Shown: one piece after another, positions 4,638 to 18,756 of the stretch
Numbering within the stretch: the first letter of the stretch is position 1
How the letters are laid out: each line of letters opens with the position of its first letter
From: Candidatus Saccharimonadota bacterium
Lineage (GTDB): Bacteria; Patescibacteriota; Saccharimonadia; Saccharimonadales; UBA4665
NCBI GenBank assembly: GCA_963716945.1
Contig: OY970322.1
Location: forward strand, 900,001 to 932,000
DNA length: 32,000 nucleotides
Reading direction: 5' to 3'
Translations under genes and position numbers: made by a program
The notes under the pieces: model-generated
What the model was told of the DNA's origin: nothing
Database searches by the model: none
Seen by the model: the letters and a program-made list of their open reading frames with translations, nothing else

Positions 4638-5255
4638 TCAGTTGGCCACGGCCGTGTAGGTAACTTGGCTGGCGTAAGCGCCGCTAGGCACGCTGGTGTC
4701 GGCGCAAACTCCGTACCAGACCGTCGTCGTGACCGCCGGGTCGGCCGCCGTCGAGGTGCTGGCGAGCGTATCGGCCGTTTGGTTGCTGGCTTTGATGCCG
4801 GCAAATAGCGTGCCGCTGGGGCTGACATTGGACTGGGCGGTTGTCGGACCGGCACCGAAACTGCCCAAGCCGTCCACCCGGTAACCCCAGGCATTGCCGG
4901 ACAAAGCCGCCGGGCTGGCCAGAGTGCCGCTGCCGGCACTAATCGAAGAGCTGCCGTTGATCAGGCCGGTATTGGTACTATTGTCAGCCAGGGTCAGCGT
5001 ATAGCCGTTGGTATCATCGGTCATAACTGAAGCGGTATCGCTTTGGATGGTGCATTTGCCGCCGGCGGCCGGCGTTATGTTAAGGCTGACATTGCCGCTG
5101 CTAACGAGAGTGATACTGCAGGCCGAGCCGTAAACGCAGGAATTGTAGCTGCCGCTGCCATAAGTACCGGTAGCGTAGGCCAAGACTCTGGGGCTGACCC
5201 AGGCCGCGGCGGCGGTTAAAGCCAGAACCGAAAGCCAGACCAGACGCCTGGCCAT
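4638..5255 (-). CDS. Secreted Thr/Ser/Gly-rich beta-rich surface subunit, paralogue 1 (WxL-like / SCPU-like)
   Basis: 205 aa with a signal peptide (MARRLVWLSVLALTAAAAWV). It shares ...SDTASV.TDD.NGYTLTLA...NAWGYRVDGLG.FGAGPT...TVWYGV.ADTS.PSGAY...VTYTAVAN-COOH with 6178-6774 and 6929-7567. Its start overlaps the upstream stop (TAATG at 5253-5257). Confidence 0.6.
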   Translation of the reverse strand: MARRLVWLSVLALTAAAAWVSPRVLAYATGTYGSGSYNSCVYGSACSITLVSSGNVSLNITPAAGGKCTIQSDTASVMTDDTNGYTLTLADNSTNTGLINGSSSISAGSGTLASPAALSGNAWGYRVDGLGSFGAGPTTAQSNVSPSGTLFAGIKASNQTADTLASTSTAADPAVTTTVWYGVCADTSVPSGAYASQVTYTAVAN

Positions 5256-6166
5256 TATGGTTTAGCTTTTTTGGCTTTGGCCGACCGGCGCCGATAGGCA
5301 TAGCGTAAGACGCCCAGTAGGATTATCACGAGCAGGATGGCGCCCAGGACCAGGCGCACCGTTTGCGACATCACGAACACCCATTTGGTCGGCAGAGTTT
5401 TGTGCTGGTTAAGGAAGCTGACCGTACCGGTTACCTTGAAAATGCCGATGGCCGGCGCTTTGTTCCAGCTGATGGTTACCCGGCGGACGGTTTGGGGCAG
5501 GACCTCTTTGGTCGTGTTTAAGCTGAGTTTCGAGCTGCCGAAAGCGTCCCGGACGTTAACCTGAATGGTGGCGGGGTAATGGATGGTGCCGTCGTTTTCC
5601 AGCCGCAGGACGGCCGTTAATGGCGGTTTCTGGAAAAGGTCGGATTGCCAGCTGGCTACTTCGCCTTTTCTGGTGACCGGGCCGGCGGCTTGAATGTAGA
5701 ATATTTCGCCGACGCGTTCGTTAAGGGTTATGCCGTTGGCGCTCTTGGGGTATTGGGTCTGGGCGAAAACAGCCGCGTAATAGCCGCCAGGGGGCGTGTC
5801 GGCGGGCATATTGATAGCGTAATTAACGGTAATCGATTGGCCGGGATTAACGTGACCCCCGGGCGTCGAAAACGAGAACCAGCTCTTAACGTTCGGGGCG
5901 GTCGGCAGAAACGTAAAATCCGGCGTGTAGTCTTCGCCCTTGACCCGGTACGGAGTGCTATAAATCTGAAAACTGTACGGCGCGGCGCCCTGGTTCAGCA
6001 CTTGCAGCGAACCTTTATATATCGAACCGGGCCTAATCGTCGGGCTGGCGGAAGTCGGCGTCATAGTTATGGCCTGCGGGGCCGCGTGGGCCGATCCGCC
6101 GCCCAACGAAAGCGCTCCGAACAAGACCAGGCCCGCGACAATTGGCAACCGGTAGAGGCGTCTCAT
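5255..6166 (-). CDS. Two-domain surface protein with C-terminal membrane anchor (DUF916/DUF3324, WxL-interacting-protein-like)
   Basis: 303 aa. Signal peptide MRRLYRLPIVAGLVLFGALSLGGGSAHA. The first half is ...IRPGSIYKGSLQVLNQGAAPYSFQIYS...VKSWFSF...VNPGQSITVNYAINMPADTPPGGYYAAVF. The second half is ...LRLENDGTIHYPATIQVNV...VLPQTVRRVTISW. A C-terminal TM helix (LVLGAILLVIILLGVL) precedes a basic tail RYAYRRRSAKAKKAKP. This layout matches CscA/DufA-type proteins as I remember them. Confidence 0.6.
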   Translation of the reverse strand: MRRLYRLPIVAGLVLFGALSLGGGSAHAAPQAITMTPTSASPTIRPGSIYKGSLQVLNQGAAPYSFQIYSTPYRVKGEDYTPDFTFLPTAPNVKSWFSFSTPGGHVNPGQSITVNYAINMPADTPPGGYYAAVFAQTQYPKSANGITLNERVGEIFYIQAAGPVTRKGEVASWQSDLFQKPPLTAVLRLENDGTIHYPATIQVNVRDAFGSSKLSLNTTKEVLPQTVRRVTISWNKAPAIGIFKVTGTVSFLNQHKTLPTKWVFVMSQTVRLVLGAILLVIILLGVLRYAYRRRSAKAKKAKP

Positions 6167-6177
6167 GCTTATTTAAT

Positions 6178-6774
6178 TCAGTTCGCGGTAGCAGTATACG
6201 TAACACTATTGGTGTAGGTGCCCGAAGGCTGGCTGGTGTTGGCGGCCACGCCGTACCAGATGGTCGTCGTATCGCTGGAAGCGACGCCCGAAGTCGTCTT
6301 CAGGGTGTTGGGTGAAGCCGTGGCCGGCACGGCGGCGAATTTGATGCTGGCGCTGATGGCGGCGCTGTTCTGGCCCGAAGTGGGACCGGCGCCGAAGCCG
6401 CCGATGCCGTCAACCCGGTAGCCCCAGGTGTTGGCGGCCATGACTACCGGCGTGGTTTGGGTACCGCTAGAAGCTGGGATGGTGTCGGAGCCGGATACTA
6501 GCGTGGAGCCGGCGCCGGTTTCGGCGAGCTGCAAAGTATAGCCGGATGAGTCATTAGTGCTGACAGTCGCCGTGTCGCTGGCGATGGTCTGGGCACCGGA
6601 GCCGGTCGGCACGACGTTGACGTTAACCGTGCCGTTAGTCGTGAAGAGGCTTATGACAGGGCTAATTGTTGAACTGATGGTCGTCGATGCGGTCAAGGCC
6701 GACACGGCGGCCGAAGTACCGAACAGCAACAGGATTGGCAGCACTAGCAGAGATGATAGTTTTAATTTTTTCAA
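6178..6774 (-). CDS. Secreted Thr/Ser/Gly-rich surface subunit, paralogue 2 (WxL-like / SCPU-like)
   Basis: 198 aa. TTG start at 6774 with a strong GGAGGA SD 6 nt upstream. Signal peptide MKKLKLSSLLVLPILLLFGTSAAVSALTA. It has the family C-terminus TIWYGVAANTSQPSGTYTNSVTYTATAN. Confidence 0.65.
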   Translation of the reverse strand: MKKLKLSSLLVLPILLLFGTSAAVSALTASTTISSTISPVISLFTTNGTVNVNVVPTGSGAQTIASDTATVSTNDSSGYTLQLAETGAGSTLVSGSDTIPASSGTQTTPVVMAANTWGYRVDGIGGFGAGPTSGQNSAAISASIKFAAVPATASPNTLKTTSGVASSDTTTIWYGVAANTSQPSGTYTNSVTYTATAN

Positions 6775-6803
6775 GTAAACTCCTCCAAGAACCCCTAATG
6801 GCT

Positions 6804-6826
6804 ATTTATGCTTGCTATATTAGCAT
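6804..6826. promoter_or_regulatory. Palindrome overlapping the predicted transcription start (operator candidate)
   Basis: TTATGCT-tgctatatt-AGCATAA is a 7-bp inverted repeat. The same right arm can alternatively pair with the inner TGCTA (6811-6815 with 6819-23) because TGCT is tandemly duplicated. Confidence 0.4.
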
Positions 6827-6829
6827 AAC

Positions 6830-6858
6830 GAATTACAAAATTAAGGCTTAATTAAATC
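6830..6858 (-). promoter_or_regulatory. Candidate internal promoter for paralogue 2 and downstream genes
   Basis: Read on the minus strand: TTGATT (6858-6853), 17 nt, TGTAAT (6835-6830). It sits inside the 154-bp AT-rich spacer between paralogues 3 and 2. Confidence 0.4.
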
Positions 6859-6928
6859 AAAAGGCTGTGTATAAAGCGGCGATTTACCCTACCCACCCTT
6901 ATAAAATTGTTGCAAAATTACCTACGCG

Positions 6929-7567
6929 TTAATTAGCGGTGGCAGTATAAGTGACGCTGTTGGTGTAAGTACCGGTCGGCTGGCTGGTGTTGGCGGCCAC
7001 GCCGTACCAGACAGTCGTTGTATCGTTAGACGCCGTACCGGAAGTAGTCTTAATGGTGTCAGGCGAGCCGCTGGCCGGCACGGCGGCAAACTTGGCGCTG
7101 CCGATAGCGGCACTGCTCTGGCCCGAGGTGGGACCGGCGCCGAAGCCGCCGACGCCGTCAACCCGGTAGCCCCAGGTGTTGGCGGCCACGACCGCCGGGC
7201 TGGCCTGGGAACCTGAGGAGGCCGGAATGGTATTGCCGCCCGATACGAGATTGGAGCTGGCGCCGGTTTCGGCCAGGTTAAGCGTATAGCCTGAGGAGTC
7301 GCTGGTGCTGACGGTAACGGTGTCGCTGGCAATCGTCTGAGCGCCCGAGCCGGTCGGCACGACGTTGACGTCAACCGTGCCGTTGCTTGTCAGCAAACTG
7401 ATAACCGGACTAAGAGTGGAGCTGATGGTCGTAGCGGCGGTCAAGGCCGACACGGCGGCCGAAGTCCCCAGCGTGGCCAATAGAATAACGCCGGCCAGCA
7501 GCGGCAAGCGCAGCTGGCGTACCAGCGGTTCAAGACGGATAGATCTGTTCGTTTGTTGATTTTTCAT
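6929..7567 (-). CDS. Secreted Thr/Ser/Gly-rich surface subunit, paralogue 3 (WxL-like / SCPU-like)
   Basis: 212 aa. It has an extended basic N-terminus, then LLAGVILLATLGTSAAVSALTA. It is very similar to paralogue 2, including identical 34- and 35-nt DNA tracts. C-terminus TVWYGVAANTSQPTGTYTNSVTYTATAN. Confidence 0.65.
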   Translation of the reverse strand: MKNQQTNRSIRLEPLVRQLRLPLLAGVILLATLGTSAAVSALTAATTISSTLSPVISLLTSNGTVDVNVVPTGSGAQTIASDTVTVSTSDSSGYTLNLAETGASSNLVSGGNTIPASSGSQASPAVVAANTWGYRVDGVGGFGAGPTSGQSSAAIGSAKFAAVPASGSPDTIKTTSGTASNDTTTVWYGVAANTSQPTGTYTNSVTYTATAN

Positions 7568-7763
7568 GTTTTTTTAATTTAATTATCAATATTGTATAGG
7601 CAAGGAGCTCAAATACACAAGCTTTTTAAATACTTTAGCCGCCGGGGTTTGGGGAACGGCTCCATGCAGGTTGTCGCCCATATAAAGCTCATGTTATGAT
7701 TTTAACCAGTGGCTCGTGGAGACGGGACTTGAGATGTTTATTAATACCTAACGGAGGGGTCTT

Positions 7764-8177
7764 ATGACGGCGCGCCTACCGACGCTTGGCGGTGATGCTA
7801 ACAACTGGGGCAGTGTTCTGAACGACTACCTCCAGCAAGCGTTGGCCGCTGACGGTACCTTGGTTACAAGCAGCACCAACTCTTACACCGGTTTGGCCAA
7901 CACCAACCTGGCCAGCGGCAGCAAGCCCGGTATCGTTCAGTTGGCAGGTGATCTCGGCAGCACGGCGGTGTCGCCGACGGTGACCGGCCTGCAAGGCAAC
8001 GCCGTTTCGGCGACCGCGCCGACTGACGGCTATGTTTTGACCTGGAGCGCCGCCGGCAGCCAGTGGCAGCCGGCGGCCGCCAGCGGCGGCGGGGGCGGCT
8101 TCACGGGCGACCTTGACGGCGGCAACGCTACTTCGGCATACGGCGGCACTTCCTCGATAGACGGAGGCACATCCTAG
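7764..8177 (+). CDS. Phage tail-fibre-like small protein (glycine-rich C-terminus)
   Basis: 137 aa with a GGAGGGG SD. LPTLGGDANNWGSVLNDYL and GIVQLAGDLGSTAVSPTVTGLQG...PTDGYVLTW...QWQP are blocks I associate with phage tail-fibre/minor-tail N-terminal modules. The stop is 1 nt before the next start. Confidence 0.5.
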   Translation: MTARLPTLGGDANNWGSVLNDYLQQALAADGTLVTSSTNSYTGLANTNLASGSKPGIVQLAGDLGSTAVSPTVTGLQGNAVSATAPTDGYVLTWSAAGSQWQPAAASGGGGGFTGDLDGGNATSAYGGTSSIDGGTS

Positions 8178-8178
8178 G

Positions 8179-9213
8179 ATGTCGACGACGATTCAGTTCA
8201 GGCGTGACACGGCCGCTAACTGGACTGCGGCCAATCCGACTTTGGCCCAAGGCGAAGTCGGACTGGAAACCGATACCAGTTCTTATAAAATCGGTGACGG
8301 CGCGACCTCTTGGGCCAGCCTGAGCTATAACCAGCTGGCACCCGAAATTACTAGCCTGTTGATGGACGGCCAGACTAACGACCCGTCAGCGCCCAGTTCG
8401 GGCGACCTGACCGTTTATAGCAAAGCTATCGGCGGCCGGATGATGTTGAAGCAAATCGGGCCCAGCGGGCTGGCGACGGCCCTGCAGCCTTTCCTGGCCC
8501 GCAACAAGGTCGGTTACTGGGATCCGCCCGGCAACGCCACGACCGTACCCGGCGTTTTCGGCTACACGGCACCGACGGTGCTGGGCACGGCCACGGCCAG
8601 GAACATCGCAACGACTAACTTGTTTAACCGGATGCGGCGGCTGGGTTTCGTGTCTTCGGCCACGGCCGGCAACCTGAGCGGCGCCTATTTGACGGTGGCC
8701 CAGGTCACGGTTGGCGACGGTTCCGGTAACGGCGGTTTCTACAAGATCTGCCGTTTCGGTTGCAGCGACGCGGCGACGGTGGCCGGCGCCCGGCAGTTTG
8801 TCGGCGTCAGCTCAACGGTATCGGCACCTACTAATGTCGAGCCCTCGACCTTGACTAACTCCATCGGGGTCGGCCATGGCGCGTCCGACACCAACCTCAA
8901 GATATTTTATGGCGGTTCAACGGCCCAGACACCGATCAGCCTGGGCGCAAACTTCCCTGTTAACACGTTGAGTACCGATGTTTATGAGCTGGCTCTATTC
9001 GCGCCGACCAATTCCAACAATACCGTTTACTACGAGGTTACCCGGATTAATACCGGCAATGTCGCTACCGGCACTCTAACCGGTACGGCCGGTACGGCCC
9101 TGCCGTCTTCGACGACCCTTTTGGCCTACCAGCGGGCTTGGCGTAGCAACAACGCCACCGCCAAGGCCGTCGGGCTGGATATTATGAGCGACTACATCGA
9201 GACGGATAACTAG
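8179..9213 (+). CDS. Tail-fibre/receptor-binding-like protein, tandem paralogue A (Mtd/HylP-type N-terminal module)
   Basis: 344 aa. The N-terminus IQFRRDTAANWTAANPTLAQGEVGLETDTSSYKIGDGATSWASLSY matches the conserved N-terminal module of phage hyaluronidase/major-tropism-determinant-type fibres. The remainder is not recognised. It abuts the next gene (TAG then ATG). Confidence 0.6.
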   Translation: MSTTIQFRRDTAANWTAANPTLAQGEVGLETDTSSYKIGDGATSWASLSYNQLAPEITSLLMDGQTNDPSAPSSGDLTVYSKAIGGRMMLKQIGPSGLATALQPFLARNKVGYWDPPGNATTVPGVFGYTAPTVLGTATARNIATTNLFNRMRRLGFVSSATAGNLSGAYLTVAQVTVGDGSGNGGFYKICRFGCSDAATVAGARQFVGVSSTVSAPTNVEPSTLTNSIGVGHGASDTNLKIFYGGSTAQTPISLGANFPVNTLSTDVYELALFAPTNSNNTVYYEVTRINTGNVATGTLTGTAGTALPSSTTLLAYQRAWRSNNATAKAVGLDIMSDYIETDN

Positions 9214-10245
9214 ATGGCCGTACAGATTCAGTGGCGGCGTGATACGGCGGCTAACTGGACCGCTAACAATTCGGTGCTGGCCCAAGGCGAACCGGGGTTC
9301 GAGACGGATACCGGAGCTTACAAAATTGGTGATGGTTCGACTGCCTGGAGCTCTTTGTCTTACGGCAATTATTCTTCCAACCCGATCGCCGCCATGTTCG
9401 CCGACCAAGCCAGCGGCAACGATCCGGCCGCGCCGGCGGCCGGCAAACTGCTGGTTTACGGCAAAACCATTGCCGGCCGCATGATGCTGAAACAAATCGA
9501 CCCGTCCGGCCAAGCCACGGCCATGCAGCCTTTCCTGGCCCGCAACAAGGTCGGTTACTGGATTCCGCCCGGTAATGCCACGACCGTGCCGGAAGTCTTC
9601 GGCTACACCGCGCCGACCGCCATGGGTACGGCCACCGCGGCCAACGTGGCGACGACCAACTTGTTCAACAGGATGCGCCGCTTGAGCTACGTTTCGTCTA
9701 CGTCCGCCGACTCCTATTGCGGCCAACGGGTCGCCGTAGCCCAGGTTTGCATAGATTCCGGCTTTTACAAGATTGTCCGCTTCGGCATTAGCGACGCTAC
9801 CCTGGCCTCGCCGGTCAACATGTTCATCGGCATGAGCGCTACCACGGCCGCGCCGTCAGGCGGCGCCGAACCGTCGACGCTGCTTAACAGTATCGGCGTC
9901 GGCCACGCTTCTACCGACACCAACCTCAAGATATTTTACGGCGGCACGACCGCCCAGACGCCGATTGACCTAGGGTCTAATTTCCCGATCAACACGACCA
10001 AGGTCGACGCCTACGAGCTGGCGCTGTTTTCGCCGCCCGGCGCCGATAACAACGTCTATTACGAGGTTACCCGGATTAATACCGGCAATGTCGCTACCGG
10101 TGTCCTGACGGGTGATACCGGCGGCGTGGAGCTGCCAGCCCCGTTAACGCTTCTGGGCTACGGTTACCACTGGCGCTGCAACTTGGGTACCGGCGTCGCC
10201 GTCAGCCTGGATATCATGAGCGACTATATCGAAACCGACAACTAG
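9214..10245 (+). CDS. Tail-fibre/receptor-binding-like protein, tandem paralogue B
   Basis: 343 aa and collinear with paralogue A. It has the same N-module (IQWRRDTAANWTANNSVLAQGEPGFETDTGAYKIGDGSTAWSSLSY) and the same C-terminal end (LDIMSDYIETDN). Divergent patches lie in between. Confidence 0.6.
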   Translation: MAVQIQWRRDTAANWTANNSVLAQGEPGFETDTGAYKIGDGSTAWSSLSYGNYSSNPIAAMFADQASGNDPAAPAAGKLLVYGKTIAGRMMLKQIDPSGQATAMQPFLARNKVGYWIPPGNATTVPEVFGYTAPTAMGTATAANVATTNLFNRMRRLSYVSSTSADSYCGQRVAVAQVCIDSGFYKIVRFGISDATLASPVNMFIGMSATTAAPSGGAEPSTLLNSIGVGHASTDTNLKIFYGGTTAQTPIDLGSNFPINTTKVDAYELALFSPPGADNNVYYEVTRINTGNVATGVLTGDTGGVELPAPLTLLGYGYHWRCNLGTGVAVSLDIMSDYIETDN

Positions 10246-10658
10246 AGGCCGGCCGCGCGGGCATAATTCTTGAGCCGCAGCCAGCCGGCGATAGCTGCCG
10301 GTTTTGTGGCGGTGACCGGCGCCGACTGGTAGATAACACCGTCGTGCCGGGCATCGACATGGGCCATTATGGTTTTGTACTGGCTTAATATGGCCGGGGT
10401 CAATGTTATGGGTGCCGAATTGAACCTGCCCTTATAAACAAGCGGCATGACATTCTCCGGACTGTTGCTGAGGACCTCCCGTATCCGGCCATGGCTATCA
10501 ACCAAGATGTAGCGTGCCGGAGCGATGGATGCCGAAATGATAACGCTACCGCCCGCAGTCAGAGGGGCCGCTAAGACCGTCCCGGGCCACAAGACGGCCA
10601 AAAGACAGATCACCACTGGTCCGGCGAAAGCCGGCAACCTCCTGAAAAAGTTCGACAT
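10242..10658 (-). CDS. Hypothetical exported or N-terminally anchored protein
   Basis: 138 aa. The N-terminal hydrophobic segment FAGPVVICLLAVLWPGTVLAAP is followed by a beta-rich region. Its stop overlaps the fibre B stop as CTAG. No family recognised. Confidence 0.5.
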   Translation of the reverse strand: MSNFFRRLPAFAGPVVICLLAVLWPGTVLAAPLTAGGSVIISASIAPARYILVDSHGRIREVLSNSPENVMPLVYKGRFNSAPITLTPAILSQYKTIMAHVDARHDGVIYQSAPVTATKPAAIAGWLRLKNYARAAGL

Positions 10659-16881: not shown

Positions 16882-18756
16882 TTATTGCGGTTTTTCGGCG
16901 ACGTAAGTAATGAACCAGGCGTCCTCATCCGGCTTGGCCTCATAGTCGTCATACTGCTTGACGGGTCCGAAACCGCTGTGGGCCAGCAGCTGCCTTATCT
17001 GCCCTTCGGCGAAGGGGTAGACCCTAAAGTAGCCCAGGTGCTGGTCGGCACCATGCTGTTTGGCAAAATACTCCAGGTACATGAAGTCCTTGCCCGGCTC
17101 GCCCATATGGTCGCGGTTAGGCCGGGCCCGCACATTGCCGGTATAGACCACCTCCGGCGGTACGAAATCATTGGGGCTCCACCGTTCCGGGTCGTAGAAC
17201 TTACGATAATTGCGTTCGTCCAGCACCAGTATGCCGCCCGGTGCCAGCAGCTCCTTGAAATTGGTTAATACCCGCTTCATGTCTTCCGTGCTGCCGAAGC
17301 AAGACAAGGAGTTGCCGAGAATCATGATTATGTCGAAGGTACCCCTCAGTCGGGCCAGCTTGGCGTCAAGGTGCCGCCAGTCAAACATCGTGAAGGACAG
17401 GTCCAGGCCTTTGCTCTTGGCATAATCGACGGCTTGGGCCGCCAGCGTCCATTCGATTTCGTTGGATAGGACATCGCAGTCGCGGGCGTGGTTGGTACGC
17501 AGCCAAACGACCTCGGCACCGACGCCCATACAGGCGTCGAAGACTTTGAGCTTTTCGCGCCCCAGTTTTTGCTGCTGGGCCGCTATGAGCTTATCTAGGA
17601 AGGCGGCCTCGCCTTGCCTGAGACGTTTCGGCGGGTCGACGAACCGTGACCAGGCCTGGGCCAGCGGCGGACTTTCGTACAGGGCCTCCAGCGACCATAA
17701 AATATCTTCCTTATCCAGCTCGTCGATATAATCGAAGACCAGTTTGCCGTGCTGCAGTCCGACGCTTTGGGTGTTGTGGACCAGATGCTTGACATACTGG
17801 ATATAGTCACGCCATAGGGCTTCGCCCGGGCAGAGTAGTTGCAGGGTCCGCTCTTCACTCAAGCCCGGCTCTTCGAAAAGCATGGCGCAAGTCCTGACCC
17901 AAATGCCGATCTCGGTAGTCCAGCCCAAACCGGGGACATAATCATTCAAGGCTTGCTTGGCTATCTGGGGGTCGACTTGTAAAAGGCGGATGCCGTTTTC
18001 CTTGTGCTTGCGCAAGTAGGTTTCCCAGACCGGTTTGTTTGCGGCGTAGTCCTTCTTCAGGACTTTTTGCGAAATCGGTAAGATCCGCGTGGCTTGCGGG
18101 GCGTAACATTGGTGCCCCCATTCATTGACCAGTTCGAACCCGGTGGTCGGCCGGAGATGCTCCAGCAGCGAGGGGTAGGCGCTGAAAAAGTCTCGCGGCA
18201 AATGCGAATCCACCCCGACGTAAGTGTCTTGCAAGCCGTAGAAAACCGACATCAGCATGTCGCGGCGGTGGGTGTTGACGTCATTGAGCTTTTCGCCGCC
18301 TAGCAGTTTGGCAAAGTCGGTTTGCAATGTCGCCAGGTGGCTGGACAGCAATTCCTCGGCCAGGTCTAGCCGCCAGAGCGTTTGTAAGCCGGGGCCTTTG
18401 ACGTCTTTTTCGATTGACTTATTAATAGCCGAAAGTACGGCTTCGGCCGCCTCGGCGCTCGGCCGTACCGAAGGTATCGAAGATGCCGGAAAGATCCCGT
18501 TGTAAGCCGGCGCGCCGGCCGCTGCCGGCATCGGAAAGCCGGCCATTTCATAAATATCTTCGGTGCTCAACTCAAGCTGGGCGGCTATCTTGCTCAGCTT
18601 AATCGGGTCCGGTGAAGCGAACTGGCCCTGTTCAAGTCTGGCGATTGTGGAATAATCGACACCGCTGGCGTGGCCCAGCTGGCGCAGACTGAGCTGCTTG
18701 GCCTCGCGCGCCGAACGAATGAAATCACCGAGTTTAGCATTCCCTATCCGTGACAT
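16882..18756 (-). CDS. Fusion protein: N-terminal XRE-family HTH + unrecognised ~260-aa middle domain + C-terminal SAM-dependent methyltransferase resembling glycine/sarcosine N-methyltransferases
   Basis: 624 aa. HTH: LGDFIRSAREAKQLSLRQLGHASGVDYSTIARLEQGQ (aa 8-45). MTase motif I is VFDACMGVGAE (aa 405-415), followed by FDIIMILGNSLSCFG and APGGILVLDERNYRKFYD. These parallel the GNMT blocks VLDVACGTG / FDAVICLGNSFAHL / GGLLVIDHRNYD that I remember. No (D/N/S)PP(Y/F/W) or PCQ DNA-MTase motif is present. Confidence 0.7.
   Translation of the reverse strand: MSRIGNAKLGDFIRSAREAKQLSLRQLGHASGVDYSTIARLEQGQFASPDPIKLSKIAAQLELSTEDIYEMAGFPMPAAAGAPAYNGIFPASSIPSVRPSAEAAEAVLSAINKSIEKDVKGPGLQTLWRLDLAEELLSSHLATLQTDFAKLLGGEKLNDVNTHRRDMLMSVFYGLQDTYVGVDSHLPRDFFSAYPSLLEHLRPTTGFELVNEWGHQCYAPQATRILPISQKVLKKDYAANKPVWETYLRKHKENGIRLLQVDPQIAKQALNDYVPGLGWTTEIGIWVRTCAMLFEEPGLSEERTLQLLCPGEALWRDYIQYVKHLVHNTQSVGLQHGKLVFDYIDELDKEDILWSLEALYESPPLAQAWSRFVDPPKRLRQGEAAFLDKLIAAQQQKLGREKLKVFDACMGVGAEVVWLRTNHARDCDVLSNEIEWTLAAQAVDYAKSKGLDLSFTMFDWRHLDAKLARLRGTFDIIMILGNSLSCFGSTEDMKRVLTNFKELLAPGGILVLDERNYRKFYDPERWSPNDFVPPEVVYTGNVRARPNRDHMGEPGKDFMYLEYFAKQHGADQHLGYFRVYPFAEGQIRQLLAHSGFGPVKQYDDYEAKPDEDAWFITYVAEKPQ

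Follow-up and report, generated by a model that had tools for sequence, protein, structure and literature searches.

Phage-type tail-fibre genes beside a Pam-type pilus locus in Saccharibacteria

We analyzed three adjoining genes, called here g1, g2 and g3 (the trio), at positions 7764-10245 of a 32,000-nucleotide (nt) stretch of DNA from a Candidatus Saccharimonadota bacterium (GenBank assembly GCA_963716945.1, contig OY970322.1, positions 900,001 to 932,000 of the forward strand). This whole stretch is called the window, and its coordinates are counted from its first letter. The three proteins are of the type known from phage tail fibres, g1 resembling a stem and g2 and g3 two heads, and in every related genome with enough flanking sequence the trio adjoins pilus genes of the Pam type.

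The Pam system of the candidate phyla radiation (CPR), with PamA/B, PamC/D, PamT and PamR, is found in the same phylum as the window and has a homologous pilin C-terminal domain and a co-localised tail fibre-like gene. In the similarity network of the preprint on this system, the "tail fibre-like protein" is central and consistently co-localised with pam, without further analysis; PamC and PamD are described there as chaperones with a C-terminal transmembrane helix (Troman et al., bioRxiv 10.64898/2026.03.03.709456). The window differs in the size of its pilins. That is, PamA is 55 kDa and PamB 39 kDa, whereas the pilin-like proteins of the window are about 20 kDa, have a single domain and do not reach the NCBIfam cut-off. 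The window also showed no PamR.

A second likeness is that to the WxL/WxLIP clusters of Enterococcus and other Firmicutes, in which, as in the window, small secreted proteins accompany a protein with two immunoglobulin (Ig) domains and a C-terminal transmembrane helix (PMC10599100). Those clusters belong to another phylum, however, and no fibre genes have been described in them.

Among phage proteins, Mtd of Bordetella phage BPP-1 begins, like the two heads, with an Mtd_N domain. Mtd is a trimeric receptor-binding protein at the tail-fibre ends, with two trimers per fibre (PMC2408619), and the arrangement of one stem gene followed by two head genes parallels this. The tip of Mtd is a C-type lectin diversified by a retroelement, in contrast to the heads studied here, which are concanavalin A (ConA)-like and highly conserved. 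HylP of streptococcal prophages shares the N-terminal module of about 50 residues with the heads, but continues as a catalytic triple-stranded beta-helix instead of a beta-sandwich body. Closer than both are fibre proteins of uncultured phages (IMG/VR contigs L033, L034, L035, L040, L044 and L120), which consist of Mtd_N and the same body (336-345 residues, mostly 60-66% identity; 40% for L044), are preceded by a small open reading frame (ORF) with a DGG...DGG tail and end in a DYIETD-type C-terminus. RcKemmy gp22 also resembles the heads, in its body and in its tail-fibre position. These phage genes are annotated as hypothetical, are single-copy and lie within virion modules (with terminase and capsid in L033 and tape-measure in RcKemmy), whereas the trio is chromosomal, has a duplicated head, adjoins pilus genes and lies outside any virion module.

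PblA and PblB of Streptococcus mitis phage SM1 are tail-fibre proteins without a signal peptide that are also surface adhesins. An intact prophage encodes them, and they come to the surface by way of the phage's holin/lysin release. The trio differs from them in that its window holds no prophage or lysis genes.

The kinds of component considered here (phage fibre, lectin fold and Pam pili) are therefore already known, and their co-localisation is the subject of one sentence in a preprint. What is new is the family identity, the fold and the phage module structure of the trio, the rule of the stem/head junction, the ancient duplication of the head under purifying selection, and a Pam-type linkage that has survived rearrangement.

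Phage-type stem and heads

The trio and its promoter-like site are as follows.

7671-7700, plus strand: promoter-like site of the trio (TTGTCG, 18 nt, TG-n-TATGAT, extended -10), from a consensus scan
7764-8177, plus strand: g1, putative fibre stem/adaptor of 137 residues without signal peptide, called as an ORF
8179-9213, plus strand: g2, A-type head of 344 residues, with Mtd_N at 8191-8307, a variable linker and a lectin-like body at about 8404-9210
9214-10245, plus strand: g3, B-type head of 343 residues and paralogue of g2, with Mtd_N at 9226-9342 and body at about 9445-10242

An earlier inspection without database searches (the sequence-only reading) had described three abutting plus-strand genes of these sizes, and the ORFs agree with it: the gap is 1 nt between g1 and g2 and 0 nt between g2 and g3. 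The guanine-plus-cytosine (GC) fraction of the trio, 0.60-0.62, is slightly above the 0.585 of the window. The promoter core AAAGCTyATGnTATnAT with an upstream TTGCC (TTGCC-N17/18-TGnTATnAT) could be aligned in eight of nine related genomes, about 65 nt 5' of the g1 start, and a Shine-Dalgarno sequence, GGAGGGG, follows the promoter-like site before g1. An Rfam scan of the 196-nt g1 leader gave no riboswitch or other RNA element.

Both heads begin with the Pfam domain Mtd_N (PF18454). At residues 5-43 the profile matched g2 with 58.8 bits (E 5e-16) and g3 with 61.9 bits (E 5e-17), the gathering cut-off being 26.3 bits. The signature of the B-type head (g3) is WRRD...GEPGFETD, as against FRRD...GEVGLETD in the A-type head (g2). 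The two heads also matched the N-termini of solved phage HylP structures (PDB 2yvv, 2c3f and 2dp5) at E ~1e-5, and this match covered residues 4-122 of the query only. The Mtd/HylP-type module recognised by eye in the sequence-only reading is thus supported by profile searches. A hyaluronidase was ruled out, because the similarity to HylP is confined to the N-terminal module and linker, and the modelled body is a beta-sandwich and not a triple-stranded beta-helix.

The bodies of g2 and g3 matched PHROG 13925, a family of unknown function, over about 285 residues (E 9e-26 to 1e-28, with 9e-26 for g2 and 1e-27 for g3). The AlphaFold2 model of g2, made from an alignment of 66 sequences including a distant phage subfamily, is all-beta, with a predicted local distance difference test score (pLDDT) of 90.7 and a predicted template-modelling (TM) score of 0.79. 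When this model was compared with the PDB by Foldseek, the first match was SO2946 of Shewanella, whose function is unknown; legume lectins and arcelins came next by the dozen (probability 1.00, E 1e-6 to 2e-7, target-normalised TM score 0.5-0.63, about 250 columns, 10-12% identity). Because of these matches we name the body of g2 and g3 a predicted ConA/legume-lectin-like jelly roll, at the level of the fold. The sequence-only reading had left this body as a fold without a name.

Foldseek against predicted viral structures found uncultured Caudovirales proteins (E down to 4e-34, identity up to 46%), proteins labelled ConA-like, and giant-virus proteins with collagen repeats. As a separate observation, the ConA-like tip stands at the C-terminus of an uncharacterised Fadolivirus protein (44% identity, root-mean-square deviation 1.6 Å) and of Indivirus collagen-repeat proteins; phage fibres and giant viruses thus have this domain in common, in part in collagen-like proteins.

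The family is large. More than 2000 homologues of g2 were obtained, and a profile of both bodies matched 3653 representative clusters (at the 50% identity level) with E <= 1e-3, among them 1087 with E <= 1e-30. In the best 150 of the 3653 clusters the body domain forms the extreme C-terminus of proteins of 259-1604 residues, and some of the proteins that bear it have N-terminal collagen repeats or DUF2793. Rhodobacter phage RcKemmy gp22 is 60% identical to the body; it follows a tail protein of the gene transfer agent (GTA) type with a TIM barrel and precedes the holin and endolysin, which makes it the last tail gene. A Curvibacter phage protein is 46% identical, and proteins of Microcystis, Pseudanabaena and Flavobacterium phages about 30%; all of these are annotated as hypothetical. 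Full-length homologues with Mtd_N and body, one on each contig, were found in IMG/VR: four of 341-345 residues are 60-66% identical and lie on contigs with a GC content of 38-72%, and a fifth (L044, 336 residues) is 40% identical. Contig L033 also carries clear matches to terminase and major capsid protein. The ConA-like body is found very commonly at the C-terminus of phage fibre proteins.

Several of the phage heads closest to g2 (60-66% identity) lie on high-GC contigs, namely L120 and L034/L035 (GC 66-72%). It is conceivable from this that the donor phages of the head infect actinobacterial hosts of Saccharibacteria.

The g1 protein consists of an N-terminal motif LPxxGGDxxNWGxxLNDYLQQ (7773-7844), one DUF5907-like repeat (7911-8075), a Gly-rich linker and a C-terminal tail of the pattern DGGxAxSxYGGxxxIDGGxS (8109-8174). 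The tail sequence, DLDGGNATSAYGGTSSIDGGTS, ends 1 nt before the g2 start. Orthologues of g1 in eight genomes are 53-69% identical and have in common the invariant motif LPxPG(G/A)(D/N)xxxWGxxLNDxxQQ, the DUF5907-like repeat and the tail DGGxAxSxYxxxxxIDGGxS. A search of viral contigs with the single g1 sequence gave two partial matches, and an alignment-based scan one more. Residues 55-119 are 50% identical to the repeat unit of a multi-repeat protein of 582 residues on a 301-kb viral contig, and residues 3-58 are 48% identical to a 151-residue ORF directly after the tape-measure gene of a phage contig of 67.5% GC. The tail-fibre-type blocks that the sequence-only reading saw in g1 are thus real, though more weakly supported than the N-terminal module of the heads; DUF5907 matched at E 3e-3, under the Pfam cut-off.

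The junction between g1 and g2 recurs in phages. On phage contigs with a full-length head, the gene upstream of the head is small and often collagen-like, abuts or overlaps the head gene, and has the same DGG...DGG tail. We counted this arrangement in the fetched phage and prophage loci (L015-L030 and L033-L112), with the tail pattern (D/N)GG...(D/N)GG. An abutting upstream ORF with such a tail was present for 38 of 74 ORFs with the Mtd_N motif under the strict pattern, and for more by eye. As background, such tails stand at 47 of 4642 ORF ends (about 1%), and these 47 include the 38. In no case examined were the DGG-tail ORF and the Mtd_N ORF fused. The pair g1-g2 is therefore a canonical phage two-gene unit. 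From the gene order alone, we also suspect that the DGG...DGG tail is the docking site of the Mtd_N domain. As an observation apart from the trio, the junction resembles a general rule of docking or module exchange for fibre heads.

Conserved linkage to Pam-type pilus genes

The genes around the trio that concern the argument are listed below.

4638-5255, minus strand: small Pam-like pilin of 205 residues with signal peptide (CPR_Pam_pilin_C E 3e-3)
5255-6166, minus strand: p303, chaperone-like, with signal peptide, two Ig-like beta domains and a C-terminal transmembrane helix, PamC/PamD-like and WxLIP-like
6178-6774, minus strand: small Pam-like pilin of 198 residues with signal peptide (CPR_Pam_pilin_C E 1e-5, below cut-off)
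6929-7567, minus strand: small Pam-like pilin of 212 residues with signal peptide, divergent from g1 (CPR_Pam_pilin_C E 4e-4, below cut-off)
10242-10658, minus strand: sp138, secreted protein of 138 residues, function unknown, converging on g3 with a 4-nt overlap with its stop codon

When the family of the window pilin-like proteins was aligned by hhalign, profile against profile, with the C-terminal domain of bona fide Pam pilins, the two agreed over 120 columns with 33% identity (probability 89.5%, E 2e-6). The C-terminus ...YTATAN is also common to both. A PDB sequence search with the window pilin-like proteins gave no match. The pilin at 4638-5255 is 32% identical (E 5e-15) to a small pilin in the canonical pam operon of a more distant lineage (locus L116, described below).

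The AlphaFold2 model of p303 has a pLDDT of 88.7. Its best Foldseek matches were structures of Enterococcus faecium WxLIP (9i1y and 9i25, E 1e-12), and after these came RbmA and CsuC, FimC, PapD, Caf1M and CfaA, which are chaperones of chaperone-usher systems. The p303 family is confined to Saccharibacteria. At the sequence level p303 is 23-26% identical to both chaperone-like genes of the L116 pam operon (E 2e-20 to 2e-25), and its C-terminal transmembrane helix agrees with the description of PamC and PamD in the Pam preprint. As a side observation, p303 is closest to WxLIP, ahead of the PapD-type chaperones, which may indicate that the Pam and WxL surface systems of monoderm bacteria have a shared origin.

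The likeness of p303 to WxLIP bears on the question of what the fibre binds. WxLIP has been proposed to stabilise WxL on peptidoglycan (PMC10599100), and the best structural matches of p303 include an entry bound to a WxL protein. By analogy, the lectin fibre of the trio might bind the cell's own wall, and not the host, and there anchor or organise the pilus system. The very high conservation of the heads would fit an invariant self ligand. We consider this unlikely, however. The pilin-like proteins of the window had no Pfam match at E <= 1, hence no WxL domain was detected, and they carry the sequences WGY and WYG instead of the WxL motif. The same head domain occurs in phages of many unrelated hosts, and it is therefore not specific to Saccharibacteria walls. 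In addition, the export of the trio, considered in the last section, is as much a problem for this explanation as for the one we prefer.

The closest homologues of g2 (64-92% identity, 338-349 residues) all come from Candidatus Saccharibacteria/Saccharimonadales assemblies. In six species-level genomes the order pilin-like, p303, pilin-like is divergent from g1-g2(-g3). In two further genomes, p303-like and pilin-like genes lie within 3 kb of the trio in another order, and three other related genomes end at a contig edge beside the trio. The loci L118 and L119 repeat the layout of the window. L119 lacks the second head and has in its place a membrane protein of 368 residues with a weak PKD match (9086-10192 of that locus). 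The trio holds an orthologous position in species whose loci have a GC content of 42-58%, and its ORFs are intact in every genome examined.

In a more distant lineage (L116/L117, together with 20 other places of similar kind), a canonical pam operon begins with a g1-like gene and only one g2-like gene. The g1-like gene of L116 keeps the N-terminal motif and the DGG tail, and the single g2-like gene is 67% identical. The order in L116 is g1-like, g2-like, p303-like, small pilin, three pilins, second p303-like, PamR-like, MazE and a major facilitator superfamily (MFS) gene, and the three pilins score 151-160 bits for CPR_Pam_pilin_C against a cut-off of 55. This neighbourhood is the one described for Candidatus Mycosynbacter amalyticus in the Pam preprint.

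The sequence-only reading had regarded the trio as an orphan. Because the linkage to pam-type genes is conserved in two gene orders, and g1 with g2 has the form of a standard phage two-gene unit, this cannot be maintained. By the evidence of gene order and homology, the trio appears to be the fibre component of a Pam-type locus, of which the window holds a reduced variant with small pilins.

Several smaller observations belong to these loci. The pilin genes at 6178-6774 and 6929-7567 are a tandem duplicate with about 78-80% nt identity, so that the locus contains another duplication besides that of g2/g3; two copies are also present in L002 and L118, and one in L001, L003, L004 and L006. The 368-residue protein of L119 has a basic N-terminus and a transmembrane helix, like the PamR-like protein of L116. 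Directly upstream of the g1-like gene of L116 there are a heliorhodopsin gene and a 69-residue ORF with a twin-arginine translocation (Tat)-like DRKDFLK motif (6393-7160 and 7281-7490 of that locus). In scans against Pfam, PHROG, NCBIfam and PADLOC, sp138 had no family match. A homologue stands at the same position in L002, L007, L008 and L118, which makes it a frequent but not universal neighbour, and its signal region holds FFRRLPAF with twin arginines.

The other genes of the window are cellular: they encode MarR, isochorismatase, MFS and ATP-binding cassette transporters, glyoxalases, inositol-1-phosphate synthase, ApbE and others. Neither Pfam scans of the main window ORFs nor PHROG scans of 20 of them revealed a gene for capsid, terminase, portal, baseplate, tape-measure, integrase or lysis, which bears out the sequence-only reading on this point. 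The same scans gave no tube, sheath, baseplate or capsid gene of a tailocin, injection system or GTA in the 32 kb. The window has no tRNA genes, and its sole repeats are the g2/g3 and pilin duplicates. Among the called genes of the related Saccharibacteria loci, whose flanks were not PHROG-scanned, no phage Pfam family appeared and the neighbours were only cellular. A prophage or integration island was ruled out, since the window shows no phage structural genes, tRNA genes or flanking repeats and the GC content is only slightly raised. A diversity-generating retroelement was likewise ruled out; the 32 kb contain no reverse transcriptase domain (Pfam) and no template repeat (repeat search), and the sequence is conserved and not hypervariable.

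These negatives bear on the possibility that the trio supplies fibres to a phage-like particle (a GTA, a tailocin or a resident phage) whose remaining genes lie in other parts of the genome, in the manner of the dispersed GTA fibre loci of Rhodobacter. RcKemmy, a GTA-like phage, has a terminal tail gene with 60% identity to the body, and fibres without a signal peptide are normal for particles released by lysis. Moreover, only 32 kb of a genome of about 1.1 Mb were inspected. Still, no phage structural gene lies in the window, the related loci have only the cellular neighbours mentioned above, and the conserved partner of the trio is a pilus cluster and not a particle cluster. We know of no conserved GTA or tailocin in Saccharibacteria. 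We therefore regard this explanation as improbable, more so than that of a fibre bound to the cell's own wall.

At 16882-18756 on the minus strand, away from the trio, there is a protein of 624 residues with an N-terminal helix-turn-helix and a C-terminal methyltransferase, which gave weak PADLOC matches to mad2 and capH. It may be a defence-related regulator or methylase.

Evolution of the two heads

The two head genes are collinear, as the sequence-only reading had stated, with 65-66% protein identity and 66.5% codon-aligned DNA identity. Within them are two tracts of exact identity.

8483-8520 = 9524-9561, plus strand: identical tract 1, 38 nt, encoding QPFLARNKVGYW
9031-9071 = 10060-10100, plus strand: identical tract 2, 41 nt, encoding YEVTRINTGNVATG

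Both tracts had been reported in the sequence-only reading, and they exceed chance. When the codon order of the g2/g3 alignment was shuffled 5000 times, the longest identical run was 17.6 +/- 3.6 nt on average, the probability of a run of at least 38 nt was 0.0002, and two such runs occurred in none of the shuffles. The paralogue pair of locus L001 has an identical run of 74 nt, whose position overlaps the 38-nt tract. Synonymous divergence (pS) is also lower within the genome (0.60 for the window pair) than between orthologues (0.68-0.89). Because of these three results, the simplest account of the tracts is probably an occasional short-tract gene conversion between the tandem copies. The tracts thus fit gene conversion and not the mosaic assembly of the pair proposed earlier.

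In the tree of the heads, the A-type and B-type copies form separate clades, each of which repeats the species topology, and the A clade has a bootstrap value of 99%. Outside A and B lie the phage copies and the only copy of L116, and the monophyly of all Saccharibacteria copies has a bootstrap of only 24%. In the orthologue comparisons, nonsynonymous divergence (pN) was 0.09-0.19 against the saturated pS given above, and omega, where computable, was about 0.06 for A and about 0.11 for B. Going by the tree and the divergence values, the two heads arose from an ancient duplication and have both been under strong purifying selection.

Site variability was distributed evenly among strands and loops, with its maximum in the linker at residues 51-80. 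Fixed differences between A and B were found at four positions only: F7W and L29F, which lie in Mtd_N, and R141A and G156S. The sequence-only reading had taken localised divergent patches as a sign of alternative specificities and had proposed to look for patch-specific hypervariability across relatives. In our comparison of site variability, the only peak was the linker and no such hypervariability of the heads was found. Thus, the pattern does not look like that of a receptor tip in an arms race. Because two of the paralogue-specific changes fall in the docking domain, they hint that the two heads may attach differently.

From these results we can consider whether the trio is merely a decaying prophage remnant, that is, neutral phage cargo without function in the cell. 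All three proteins are of phage type, as a remnant would require. However, the ORFs are intact in every genome and orthologous in position across loci of 42-58% GC, pN is far below pS, both paralogues have been kept since an old duplication, and the promoter is conserved. There is also no tRNA, integrase, or inverted or flanking repeat. A remnant is thus contradicted by selection and synteny as far as these can be read from the sequences, and we give it hardly any weight. The opinion of the sequence-only reading that the genes are fixed in the host holds, since at least eight Saccharibacteria genomes keep the layout and the A and B clades follow the species tree.

The conservation of the heads could also be that of a mimic. 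In such a case the trio would act inside the cell as a decoy against phages: cytoplasmic fibre parts would mis-assemble onto the fibres of an infecting phage, so that the progeny would be non-infective, or, when released on lysis, they would mask receptors and cause superinfection exclusion. Cross-assembly with phage fibres is conceivable because the heads are similar (60-66% identity to the phage copies) and the stem/head junction is common to many phages, and the trio is without signal peptides. On the other hand, PADLOC gave no defence family for the trio or its neighbours, and a known defence system was ruled out on this ground. A decoy would leave the stable linkage to pili in two gene orders unexplained, and the orthologues follow the species tree without the turnover that is usual in defence islands. 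We therefore doubt this explanation to about the same degree as that of a fibre on the cell's own wall.

A possible role in attachment

We propose, with about even confidence, that the trio encodes a domesticated phage fibre, made of a stem and two lectin-like heads, which acts as a glycan-binding adhesin together with the Pam-type pili. In this proposal, the Pam-type pilus locus of Saccharibacteria would have gained a phage tail-fibre module as a lasting chromosomal component. The g1 protein would be a short stem or adaptor, whose DGG...DGG tail docks the Mtd_N domain of a head protein. The g2 and g3 proteins would be alternative heads, presumably trimeric, each with an Mtd_N docking domain and a ConA/legume-lectin-like beta-sandwich. 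The assembled fibre would bind a glycan on the envelope of the host bacterium of the epibiont, or on the cell's own wall, and work alongside the neighbouring pili in cell-cell attachment. Here we only infer the trimerisation, the docking of the tail to Mtd_N, the export, the glycan binding and the role in host attachment, and with them the adhesin function that the sequence-only reading had suggested.

The following points weigh against this proposal. By sequence inspection, g1, g2 and g3 have no signal peptide or hydrophobic N-terminus, unlike the neighbouring pilin-like proteins and p303, and this absence argues against a simple surface display of the trio. No export route for the trio was identified, and there is no holin or lysin nearby. 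The g2 body ends in DYIETDN, and this YxxxD was considered as a C-terminal type VII signal; it was ruled out, because the phage copies have kept this ending and it makes up the final beta-strand of the model. The assignment as a lectin is at the level of the fold alone (TM score 0.5-0.6, 10-12% identity). The head is unusually conserved for a receptor-binding tip, being 60-66% identical to phage copies on contigs whose GC content ranges from 38 to 72%, and such conservation agrees better with a structural role or a generic ligand than with the recognition of a particular host. The window pilin-like proteins score 17.7-25.6 bits for NCBIfam CPR_Pam_pilin_C (NF058581), the cut-off being 55. The supplement of the Pam preprint (bioRxiv 10.64898/2026.03.03.709456) mentions neither the fibre protein nor a proteomics table. 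Finally, the window is 32 kb of a genome of about 1.1 Mb.

A narrower form of the proposal, which we hold more tentatively and think somewhat less probable, is that a whole phage receptor-binding unit of stem and lectin head was captured by episymbiotic Saccharibacteria and wired into the Pam locus as a device for host recognition, that the head was then duplicated in one lineage, and that export proceeds without a signal peptide. In this form, the two alternative heads would compete for or share one stem through the interface of DGG tail and Mtd_N, and the unit may have come from phages of the same hosts.

A central open question about the ultrasmall epibionts of the CPR/Patescibacteria is how they locate their host cells and keep hold of them, and pili have been the main candidates so far. 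The locus described here offers a candidate for a second attachment component, namely a lectin-headed fibre of phage type that is genetically tied to the new Pam system, and it is present in a lineage close to the cultured Candidatus Mycosynbacter amalyticus. The ConA-like fibre tip is very widespread, unusually conserved, and common to phages and giant viruses. The split junction of DGG tail and Mtd_N probably defines the docking of interchangeable heads and could serve the engineering of receptor-binding proteins. If the narrower form of our proposal is true, the trio would be a phage fibre without a phage, forming part of a bacterial organelle for cell-cell attachment.

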